From NCBI RefSeq assembly GCF_988243305.1, contig NZ_OZ547136.1: 64,000 nucleotides of DNA; one strand, given 5' to 3'. Below are positions 15,901 to 18,900 of this stretch, piece by piece. The position numbers were made by a program. How positions within the stretch are numbered: position 1 is the stretch's first letter; every line of letters starts with the position of its first letter.

Positions 15901-18900
15901 GCAGAAGAAGGCTGTCAACAGAGAGTTCGGGTATGAATTACATAATTAAGTAACATGGTGTTCACAGAACACGCAGTTACCGGACACATCAGTTTTCCAT
16001 TCGCTCCCTGGCAGTACAGGCTTCCCCTCTGACGGGATAGCCTGAAAAAATAACACAGAAAATTATTTGTTATAATTAATATAACTTACTCAAAAAAAAG
16101 CGACGAGAAAATCAGCATCAACGAACAATAAGCGCCAATACGTGATAACAAATGGCAGCCATATTTATCTGCAGTATAAGCAATGGACAGGATAACCACA
16201 CCAGAAACCGTCAGCATAAAATCCATTTGAACTTCCCCGGACAAAATCGACTCATCTAAAGATTTACAGCTCTTTTTATTATCAATATGTTAAAAGTAAA
16301 ATAAACAGATGTTCAATAACACGAATACAAAAACGTGCTGAAATTCAATGAATCCATTTCTGTGTCATCAATTAATAGTGATAAACATCCGGCTTCTTCC
16401 ACCATCGCACCGGACAGGCGACTATGAGGGGACAACGCCGCGCTCCGTTAACGCGGTAAACCCCGGTGTGTATCGTTTTTGATTATCCCCGCACACTCGC
16501 GCAGAGGAGTCTCCCTGTCGGGCTGCGGTCTCTGTTAATGAGGGAATACAGCGACGATACGGCGCATCAACAAAACTTATTTCAGGCACTGAGTACGGAT
16601 ATATTCCTGCGCCCCTTCCAGTTGCTTGTGCATCGTCATCAGCCGCTCTCTGAGGGTGAAATAATCCCGTTCAGCGGTGTCTGCCAGTCGGGGGCCGGTT
16701 GCATTATCCACGCGGGCGGTGCCGGTGGCTTCACGCACGGGACCTGGACAGGTGGCGTTGATACGCAGGCGCTTACGACCAGCGGCAACGTCAGCGCGAA
16801 GAGTTTCATTTTCAGCTCTCGCATCGGCTAATTCCCTCGAGTATTTTGCATCGAGCGCAGCAACATCACGCTGACGCATCTGCATGTCAGTAATTGCCGC
16901 GTTCGCCAGCTTCAGTTCTCTGACATTTTTGTCGCGCTGGGCTTTGTAGGTAATGGCGTTATCACGGTAATGATTCAGCCCCAGACTAAGCGCACCACAG
17001 GCCACCAGCATGACAATAATCACCACACACAGAACACGGTTCATATCACCACCAACGGATTGCCCAGACCAGAACAGCAATGGCCACAATACGAATGGCA
17101 AATGCCATTGCCCGAATAAGTTCAGCACTCATCTTTTTAAAGTTCACGATTTCAGCGCAATGACCAGTTTTGCCAGCCCATATAGCATCGGAGACACAGC
17201 AATACCAACAGCCACCCACTTAATAGCAAAAGCCAGCGCTCTGCTGATGTCATCAGTCACTGTCACCCCAGCAGCCCCGACGAAGACAACATCACCCAGG
17301 CGAGGGACAGAAAAAGAGCAACCAGCATTAGTGAAAATGAAATACCGACAATCACACACAGGACCTTTGCCGGCGTTATGAGTTTGTCTGACATAGCTAC
17401 CCCTTAATTGCCACAATTAACTGGGATACTACCCATAAAAAAGGGATGCTCCAGACCAGCAAAAATTTCCAGTTTGGTAATTGACTAATCATGAGTCGCA
17501 ACTCCCTAATCAGTTTGCTAAAATCAATCAAGGCAGCCTCCCATAGCTTACTGCCATAAAAACAAAACCCCGCTTGCTGCCAACAAACGGGGTTTTTACT
17601 TTTATTCACTTACGTTTCGCCAGTTCGCAGGATTTCGTGTTATCCGCCCGCGTGGCCATGCCTTATTTTTCAGCAAAATATTCTGCTTATCTGTCGATAC
17701 CCCAGCACGCCAGCGCGCTCTCCTGGTCACGACGGGATACCTGACCGTAGCAGTTGTTTGAACGAATACGGCAGTCTCTGCCACCGTCCTTAATCCACCA
17801 GCGAATCGCCTCACACGCTCCCCTGCGGTCACCAGCATTCAGCCGCTTATAAAACGTCGACGGGAAACACTTACCGGGGCCAATGTTATAGGGACAGAAT
17901 GACGCTATACCCGCTTTCTGTGGTTCGGTCAGTGGAACTTTAATATTGCGCTCCACCCATGCCAGCGCCTTATCCCGTTCAATGGCATTAACCTGGTCGC
18001 ATTTTTCCTTCGACAGTTTCATGCCCGGAATAACAGGTTTACCATCCACCATTGTGGCACCGCGGCAGATGGTCCAGATACCCGCACCATCACGGTATGC
18101 CGTTGTGTGGTTACCTTCTTTTTCATCCAGAAACTGGTCGAGAATATCAGGCGCAGGCGCACCGATGGCAATCAACGCCAGAACGGCAGCCGACAGGCCA
18201 TATTTGATTTTGGTGTTCATGGATATTTATCAGGATTTATCGGTTCCGAATCCCTGGATATGTTAAATCTTCAGCCCGCCAGCGGTAGGACACTGGCGTT
18301 TTTCCTGATGGCTGAAATATATCTGACAATTTCAGTAGAGGATTAACCATGCATAACGATCAACATAATTATGATTTATGCCTGCAAGCCATAAATGAGC
18401 GGGTAAAATCAGAGTGCCTCTTACTCCTCCCACAAGAACACGATGCAGTAAAATCCATTCAGGCTGAGCCGTATGGACATCTCACACCTGTGACTCTCGG
18501 CATTATCGCCAGAGCATTAACACAGCCCATGCTTATGCGTATTAAGACCAATATAAATAACTGGTTGAATGAAGAATTAAGCTACCTTGATTGTGAGTGG
18601 GACAATCATTACGCAAAAACACAAAAAGAACGCATCTTCAGTCGATTATCCAGCAACAGATAACGAGCCACCTTATATACGCCCTTTCAGATAAGTCATC
18701 CCCGGCTGCATCCAGTCAACAGGTGCTTTCTTAAAGGGCGTATTATCAAAATCACGCAGAAGAGCCTCCAGCACAACTGCATCATTGTCAGCACCACTGG
18801 CCATCATTTCAATCTCAGCTGCTACCTGCAGATATCCCATGCAACGACCAATGCGCTTCATCAGCCCCTGCTTTTTATTGTTCTTCAGGTAATCAATGGC

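Follow-up and report, generated by a model that had tools for sequence, protein, structure and literature searches.

A 46-codon reading frame between Rz and cos in an Escherichia coli lambdoid prophage: an annotated hypothetical gene beside a candidate structured RNA

The 46-codon reading frame and its annotation

Between the Rz spanin gene and the cohesive-end site of a lambdoid prophage, the DNA analyzed here (the window, 64,000 nucleotides of contig NZ_OZ547136.1 from RefSeq assembly GCF_988243305.1) carries an open reading frame (ORF) of 46 codons plus stop at 16086..16226. It lies on the minus strand, which is the late strand, with its ATG at 16226-16224 and its TAA at 16088-16086, and it encodes the hydrophobic 46-aa product MDFMLTVSGVVILSIAYTADKYGCHLLSRIGAYCSLMLIFSSLFFE. 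An alternative TTG start further upstream would extend the product to 52 aa. The translation is identical over 46/46 residues to ECs1538 (NP_309565.1) from prophage Sp6 of Escherichia coli O157:H7 Sakai, and the Prokaryotic Genome Annotation Pipeline (PGAP) lists it as the coding sequence of a “hypothetical protein” (WP_000347013.1) in each inspected RefSeq genome that has the 46-aa form. Since it is identical to a Sakai-annotated entry and is present in a published translatome table, the gene is already known and is a long-annotated hypothetical gene of E. coli lambdoid prophages. An earlier note on this DNA had proposed that both the frame and a companion peptide at 17263-17394 might be unannotated micro-proteins. 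This holds for neither, as the companion is also on record (WP_001280935.1, phrog_4906).

The position of the frame, the Shine–Dalgarno (SD)-like GGGGAAG in front of it, and the hydrophobic character of its product are confirmed by sequence reading and by the ORF list. The SD-like element occupies 16232..16238 on the minus strand and ends 5 nt before the ATG at 16226. Its pairing with the 3′ end of 16S rRNA was computed here as a duplex of -5.7 kcal/mol, and the SD value given for ECs1538 by Huecker et al. (2017; PMC5597208, S4 Table) is -3.6. The variants GAGGAAG and GGGGAAT found in homologues retain the pairing. The interval from the ynfO-like ORF to Rz spans 15954-16576 (623 bp), and the statement of the earlier note that these ~620 bp lack any ORF over 60 aa is borne out by the ORF list for ORFs contained entirely within them; the longer ORF of 121 aa that lies antisense to Rz has its start at 16466 and extends beyond the interval.

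The final codons of the frame run through a T8 homopolymer (16092..16099, minus strand), whose length variants alter only the C-terminal one to three residues. A T9 run gives a product of 45 aa and a T7 run one of 49 aa, which PGAP annotates in a T7-variant strain as WP_000347015.1. Variants with T7, T9, and longer T-runs (45-, 49-, and 51-aa products) are common among genomes and reflect either real length variation or sequencing error.

The segment 15960-16420 is found at an identity of at least 95% in 738 of 5,426 complete E. coli genomes, mostly as one copy per genome, and DNA of the ORF and its surrounding cargo is matched by only two phage records. The main texts of the literature yielded nothing on ynfO/ylcI, WP_000347013, ECs1538, or the peptide sequence.

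Published expression data and promoter

Huecker et al. include ECs1538 in their list of the 250 shortest Sakai genes that are annotated and have a ribosome coverage value (RCV) of at least 0.25 (PMC5597208). The underlying data (S2 Table) combine strand-specific RNA-seq and ribosome profiling (RIBOseq) of Sakai, and translation is called from at least 1 read per kilobase per million mapped reads (RPKM), a coverage of at least 0.5, and an RCV of at least 0.25. In lysogeny broth (LB), ECs1538 lies above all of these thresholds, with 57.6 RPKM of RNA, 26.1 RPKM of footprints, an RCV of 0.46, and a footprint coverage of 0.98. The corresponding values are 32.7 RPKM, 7.3 RPKM, 0.23, and 0.81 in brain heart infusion (BHI) and 2.1 RPKM, 0.6 RPKM, 0.29, and 0.13 under cold/salt stress (S2 Table). 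The RCV in LB is higher than that of the bona fide neighbor ynfO (old ECs1539, identity checked), for which an RCV of 0.25 and 45.6 RPKM of RNA are reported (PMC5597208). The earlier note had held that the frame should be given up if ribosome occupancy were lacking; for the identical Sakai gene such occupancy is published, albeit at low depth.

Late-strand RNA upstream of the gene amounts to 10.1 RPKM for ECs1536 and 3.0 RPKM for ECs1537, the latter spanning a conserved block that follows Rz (PMC5597208). In this uninduced culture, the RNA of ECs1538 is thus ~20 times that of ECs1537 and ~6 times that of ECs1536, from which it follows that the transcript starts no more than ~140 nt from the ATG. 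The low RNA level over ECs1537 suggests that the ORF has its own promoter. A candidate sigma-70 promoter (TTTATT, 16-nt spacer, GATAAT) is located at 16278..16305 on the minus strand, with its -10 element at 16283-16278, and this GATAAT is invariant across all homologues. The scan of the leader also returned an overlapping alternative, TTGAAC-18-TAACAT, at 16316-16287 (minus strand). A third promoter, predicted with BPROM 248 bp upstream of ECs1538 (linear discriminant function 8.0; PMC5597208, S4 Table), was rejected as the lysogen promoter, since it lies inside ECs1537, with its 3.0 RPKM of RNA versus 57.6 RPKM for ECs1538. In the supplements of a Cappable-seq study of strain EDL933, no match to the leader sequence and no mapped transcription start site (TSS) for it were found.

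Retention of the frame in homologous loci

Genomes, viral contigs, and metagenomes together supplied 134 complete homologous loci in which frame retention could be assessed. A frame not conserved in homologous regions was the second outcome that the earlier note regarded as fatal; the full 46-aa frame is kept in 114 of these loci (~85%), 105 of which encode the identical peptide and nine more full-length missense variants. The ATG is replaced by GTG in three loci, all of them gut-metagenome contigs (L234, L271, and L277) in which the remaining frame is intact. Another 13 loci differ solely in the length of the T8 run, one encodes a C-terminally truncated 44-aa product, and one has lost the stop. 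Two loci are frameshifted; both belong to a draft assembly in which further homopolymer errors occur. The frameshift allele P0010 was set aside as a probable draft-assembly error, given its multiple homopolymer indels.

In the most divergent lineage (~6%), the frame is kept with a TAA-to-TGA change at its stop, and the DNA just beyond the stop decays with indels. Conservation among the homologous loci is a property of the whole unit from ~16567 to ynfO and extends beyond the ORF alone. The lack of nonsense changes in the frame is uninformative, because substitutions are so few. In the same alignment, ynfO displays the expected pattern of third-position variation, and the selection test therefore works where divergence suffices.

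Predicted product and family membership

Hydropathy of the peptide peaks at residues 3-17 and 29-45, with a loop between them that contains K21, H25, and R28. Structure prediction with AlphaFold2, run without an alignment, places helices at residues 2-22 and 24-45 with a mean predicted local distance difference test (pLDDT) score of 75.9. Two transmembrane (TM) helices in the inner membrane are also predicted by TMSEG (PMC5597208, S9 Table). The product is therefore modeled as what is probably a two-helix inner-membrane micro-protein, with the reservation that T-rich DNA biases toward such sequences.

The peptide does not qualify as a Bor lipoprotein or as a holin. It has no L-x-x-C lipobox, and a tblastn search of the whole 64-kb window with lambda Bor, p78, and p79 retrieved nothing (best E value for Bor 6.2), in agreement with the earlier note, which had failed to recognize a Bor-like lipoprotein. 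Class II holins/pinholins and type I toxins (Hok, Ldr, TisB, and ZorO) are likewise small hydrophobic helices located in phages and prophages. The ORF differs from them in the absence of homology, of a charged C-terminal domain, of a dual start, and of adjacency to the endolysin: its C terminus (...SSLFFE) has no charged tail, no dual-start motif is present, and it is positioned beyond Rz and a further block of ~180 nt. Homologous lysis cassettes, moreover, already contain a class II holin, and no PHROG lysis family and no known toxin family matches the peptide.

The cargo and its slot

The ORF is the sole sizeable frame of an AT-rich, moron-like cargo of ~0.4 kb (15978..16388, minus strand). 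Its GC content is 36%, compared with 58% in the conserved block and 52% in the window, and its left junction is sharp and coincides with the end of that block. At the other side, homology to a lineage that has no ynfO (L009/L010) stops at 15978. An anchor independent of the ORF, namely the 23 nt that end the G+C-rich part (16411-16389), recovered 91 viral contigs. What follows the anchor varies: it may be the AT-rich ORF cargo, a TonB_C lipoprotein gene, cos itself, or one of at least 15 other sequences, and the ORF cargo is lacking in most phages with the same lysis cassette. In phages that carry the block, bor or kilA-type cargo is found between Rz and the block. With bor or kilA ahead of the block and other cargo after it, the Rz-to-cos region therefore has two slots with the block between them. 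In the window, the first slot (Rz to block) is empty and the second (past the block) holds the ORF cargo; bor is missing because the slot it occupies in related phages is empty.

The unit of block, leader, and ORF is mobile relative to its surroundings. With ynfO included, it is found beside both lambda-type (Nu1/A) and HK97-type (HNH/TerS/TerL) packaging modules, and without ynfO it is found beside a third packaging module (L009-L011). Two marks of a moron are seen, namely presence or absence between conserved flanks and a base composition unlike that of the neighbors; an intrinsic terminator of its own after the ORF is not.

Comparison with known systems

The closest counterpart is ECs1538 itself, which in Sp6 has the same neighbors as in the window, i.e. 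the block upstream and a convergent DUF3950 gene downstream. Sp6 differs in its packaging genes (HNH/TerS/TerL instead of cos-Nu1-A) and in an extra 225-bp ORF (ECs1536) in the Rz-to-block slot.

The moron concept of lambdoid phages reportedly goes back to Juhala and colleagues in 2000. With lambda Bor and other morons, the ORF shares its location between Rz and cos, its small size, a product predicted to be directed to the envelope, presence or absence between conserved flanks, an atypical composition, and apparent expression in lysogens. It differs from bor in that it has neither sequence similarity nor a lipobox and lies on the late strand, whereas bor lies on the opposite one; bor is also upstream of the conserved block and the ORF downstream, and no terminator was found for the ORF.

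The TonB_C lipoprotein gene (phrog_1267) has the same position and strand as the ORF, ~145-165 nt after the block and convergent with a ynfO allele, and it too encodes an envelope protein. Its product is distinct, with 110 aa, a lipobox, a match to Pfam TonB_C (PF03544, E 5.5e-15), and a sequence unrelated to that of the 46-aa peptide. This gene is located at L021 ~4210-4545 (minus strand) and is also present in L028 and L056, with a 66-aa ynfO allele as its convergent partner. PHROGs files phrog_1267 as “Rz-like spanin”, probably wrongly.

Precedent for very small genes at this site comes from K-12, in which the Qin prophage carries, on the late strand between rzpQ and ynfO, the very small ORFs YnfQ, YnfR, and YnfN, all accepted in the K-12 annotation. 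The Rz-to-ynfO interval is for this reason a known home of micro-proteins. The Qin genes sit in a larger cargo (cspI, gnsB, and ydfO) that is absent from the window, and the peptide is not similar to YnfN, YnfQ, YnfR, YnfS, YnfT, or YnfU. The suggestion of the earlier note that the lysis-proximal region encodes several micro-proteins thus has precedent in Qin and in the tiny ORFs of the endolysin-to-Rz gap, while its claim that they are unannotated fails.

The conserved non-coding block

The block that separates the two slots lies directly after Rz at 16389..16567 (minus strand), is ~180 nt long and sharply bounded, and is a candidate structured RNA. It was found in 398 phage records at 75-100% identity, always in late-strand orientation, and its carriers include Stx1 and Stx2 phages, phage 2851, 2G7b, and Salmonella SPN3UB. 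Its invariant core reads GAGTGTGC....ATAATCAA.AACGAT. Codon analysis of the variants revealed no codon periodicity. The interpretation of the block as protein-coding (old ECs1537, ORF B85) was rejected on this ground and on account of frequently broken frames and indels of 1 and 10 nt. The old ECs1537 entry has also been removed from the current Sakai RefSeq record.

A consensus structure of nine helices on the late strand was derived from 47 non-redundant block sequences. In it, 97.7% of cells are paired versus 36-64% in slid controls, 12 pairs show compensatory changes versus 1-4 in slid controls, and the observed values were reached in none of 500 shuffles. Many of the pairs are G-U and would be mismatches on the opposite strand. 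Against a structured RNA weighs that the folding energy of the single sequence is unremarkable (z = -0.33), with a minimum free energy (MFE) fold unlike the consensus. No Rfam match to the block was obtained, and its sequence strings were not found in the literature. The prophage small RNAs (sRNAs) Pas and EcOnc were considered and discarded, as they map near Q/pR′ and not at this locus. Judged from comparative sequence data, the block is a candidate for an undescribed structured RNA between two cargo slots, and it is of more interest than the ORF.

Neighboring genes

Downstream of the ORF, a gene of the YlcI/YnfO family (DUF3950) lies convergently at 15768..15953 on the plus strand (NCBIfam NF041551, 9e-9; Pfam PF13132, 9e-19), and its product is 90% identical to K-12 YnfO over 52 aa. 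The 132-nt spacer between the two has no canonical terminator on either strand. Folding of this 3′ region gave a G+C-rich hairpin at 16017..16044 that is non-canonical as a terminator in either direction. The DUF3950/ynfO gene is always opposite to the late strand and adjoins the packaging module, be it cos-Nu1-A, HNH-TerS-TerL, or another type. It occurs as several recombining alleles (61, 66, 75, and 77 aa) and has a weak HicB-like PHROG match (E 0.012). In lambda, a YnfO/DUF3950 homologue is encoded at ~48148-48303 (complement) of NC_001416 (locus L008 3649-3804), a stretch that is gene-free in the reference record. It lies just inside the right cohesive end and shares 90% identity with the ynfO-like ORF of the window across 52 residues. 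In Sakai, the 61-aa DUF3950 gene (old ECs1539; NC_002695.2, locus L104 21382-21567, minus strand) has been dropped from the current RefSeq record, which now lists a 90-bp ORF, ECs_1539, on the opposite strand.

Further along, the sequence GGGCGGCGACCT at 15551..15562, read on the late (minus) strand, is assigned as cosN by its likeness to the lambda left end; the ORF lies ~0.5 kb upstream of cos, and the cos region is ~90% identical to the lambda right end. Other late-strand (minus) genes are Nu1 (14827-15372) and terminase A (12927-14852). On the other side of the ORF lie Rz (16577..17044, minus strand), with Rz1 embedded at 16639-16824 and a 468-bp PGAP “lysis protein” as its equivalent in homologous loci, and the endolysin gene (17687-18220, minus strand). 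The gap between endolysin and Rz (17045-17686) measures ~640 bp versus ~300 bp in relatives. Identical gap DNA in E. coli 55989 has three tiny hypothetical proteins annotated by PGAP, which correspond to 28 aa at 17046-17132, 51 aa at 17144-17299, and 43 aa at 17263-17394 (phrog_4906). The 28-aa and 51-aa products have the motif RA(L/M)AFAI(K/R).VA in common (BLASTP E 3e-4). Within the late operon, at 17596-17564, lies a strong hairpin that resembles a bidirectional terminator.

Function of the frame and alternative explanations

The explanation favored here, with a confidence only a little above even, is that the ORF is a lysogen-expressed moron that encodes a two-helix inner-membrane micro-protein, probably with an envelope-related role. 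ECs1538 would be the single gene of the ~0.4-kb AT-rich cargo, placed on the late strand between the block and the convergent ynfO. In the lysogen, a weak sigma-70 promoter of its own, located in the AT-rich leader, would drive its transcription from a TSS near 16271, as estimated from the RNA-seq ratios, and during lytic growth its position suggests that it would also be carried on the Q-antiterminated late transcript. Translation would start at the ATG at 16226, as the low-depth published RIBOseq data indicate, and the product would form a 46-residue helical hairpin in the inner membrane with the K21/H25/R28 loop predicted to face the cytoplasm. By analogy with Bor and the TonB_C lipoprotein, the most likely role may be conjectured to be that of an envelope-acting lysogen factor, for example in the modulation of a membrane protein or in phage exclusion.

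Several observations weigh against this explanation, and most of them are what would be expected if the ORF were fortuitous, that is, if the cargo were non-coding spacer or regulatory DNA, the frame had come to be annotated by gene callers only for its ATG and a nearby G-rich stretch, and the footprints reflected pervasive, non-productive translation. When the interval was resampled with matched composition, an ATG-initiated ORF of at least 46 codons arose in 74% of cases (a chance expectation of 0.74), and an SD duplex at least as stable as -3.5 kcal/mol precedes 5 of the 19 ATGs that the interval contains. T makes up 44% of the coding strand and 45% of its second codon positions, a richness sufficient to produce hydrophobic residues by chance. 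All three features, namely length, SD, and hydrophobicity, are therefore within chance expectation for T-rich DNA; the features named in the earlier note are present as claimed and do not, on sequence alone, exceed chance. The hydrophobic segments comprise 15-17 residues and are short for TM helices. The distinct substitutions in the ORF (5 synonymous and 8 nonsynonymous) give an omega of ~0.6 that is indistinguishable from 1 (p 0.2-0.35), the density of variant sites is equal in the ORF and the non-coding leader, and purifying selection on the ORF is not demonstrable from these 13 sites. As far as sequence databases tell, the peptide is an orphan confined to E. coli: among 5.8 billion proteins searched, all matches were E. 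coli sequences of at least 84% identity, mainly truncations and frameshift variants, and when 1.84 billion cluster representatives were scanned in full with HMMER, the only hits were the ORF’s own cluster and four tandem-repeat artefacts (P0014-P0017, discarded). Pfam, NCBIfam, PHROGs, and PADLOC contain no family that matches it. The frameshift variants of the T8 run, moreover, are common. The expression data have limits, as the raw counts in BHI average 7 RNA reads and 4 footprints (PMC5597208, S7 Table), the RCV of 0.46 is below the mean of 1.55 of short annotated genes, and ECs1538 entered the table by selection on an RCV of at least 0.25 (PMC5597208). The candidate promoter matches the consensus at 8 of 12 positions and remains under the threshold of the tool scan, and a terminator after the ORF was neither called in a scan of the window region nor listed for ECs1538 in S4 Table (PMC5597208). 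A fortuitous ORF is nevertheless judged rather unlikely. Footprints cover 98% of the frame at an RCV higher than that of the genuine gene next to it; frame, start (ATG/GTG), and stop (TAA/TGA) persist in the lineage that has diverged by ~6%, while the DNA after the stop decays; and an alternative cargo in the same slot carries a real late-strand gene.

Two further explanations accept a function for the transcript or the peptide of another kind, and both are given far less credence. The late-strand transcript might act as RNA, either through convergent, antisense overlap with the ynfO mRNA in the manner of an excludon or as an sRNA, with the ORF being incidental. The convergent arrangement of ECs1538 and ynfO across a 132-nt spacer devoid of canonical terminators would suit such overlap, as would the similar RNA levels of the two genes (57.6 and 45.6 RPKM) and the equal nucleotide conservation of leader and ORF. 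A regulatory RNA is nonetheless improbable, since the RCV of 0.46 and the near-complete footprint coverage point to ribosome loading, the unit of block and ORF is also found without ynfO, and no Rfam family was matched at an E value of 1 or better by the window region or by five diverged homologous loci. A search for tRNA and tmRNA was negative as well. The peptide might instead be membrane-active and toxic or accessory to lysis, either as an antisense-controlled product similar to type I toxins or as a small modulator of the holin/antiholin type expressed from the late transcript. In favor of this are its small size and hydrophobicity, a late-strand position directly after S-R-Rz/Rz1, two predicted helices that resemble the topology of class II holins, and a convergent transcript that might supply the antisense RNA. 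Such a role is hard to reconcile with expression in uninduced lysogens without obvious harm, with the ~180-nt block that separates the ORF from the lysis genes, and with the lack of the ORF in most phages that have the same cassette. As the peptide also has neither the charged tail nor the dual-start motif and resembles no PHROG lysis or known toxin family, a toxic or lytic function is regarded as quite unlikely.

A broader proposal joins the ORF and the block. The ORF would be a young micro-protein gene that is restricted to E. coli prophages and functions in lysogens, and the block would be an undescribed structured RNA of the late transcript that influences the expression or processing of the downstream moron, including the ORF. 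This combined proposal is speculative, and we hold it to be doubtful as a whole.

Implications for lambdoid prophages

The ORF probably represents one more uncharacterized orphan membrane micro-protein, and ~14% of sequenced E. coli carry it, O157:H7 and O104:H4-type strains among them. Its apparent expression in lysogens makes it a candidate factor for lysogenic conversion or phage exclusion, and the consequences for the ORF itself are small. The arrangement of two cargo slots with the block between them can serve as a working reference point when morons of Stx and other lambdoid prophages are catalogued.

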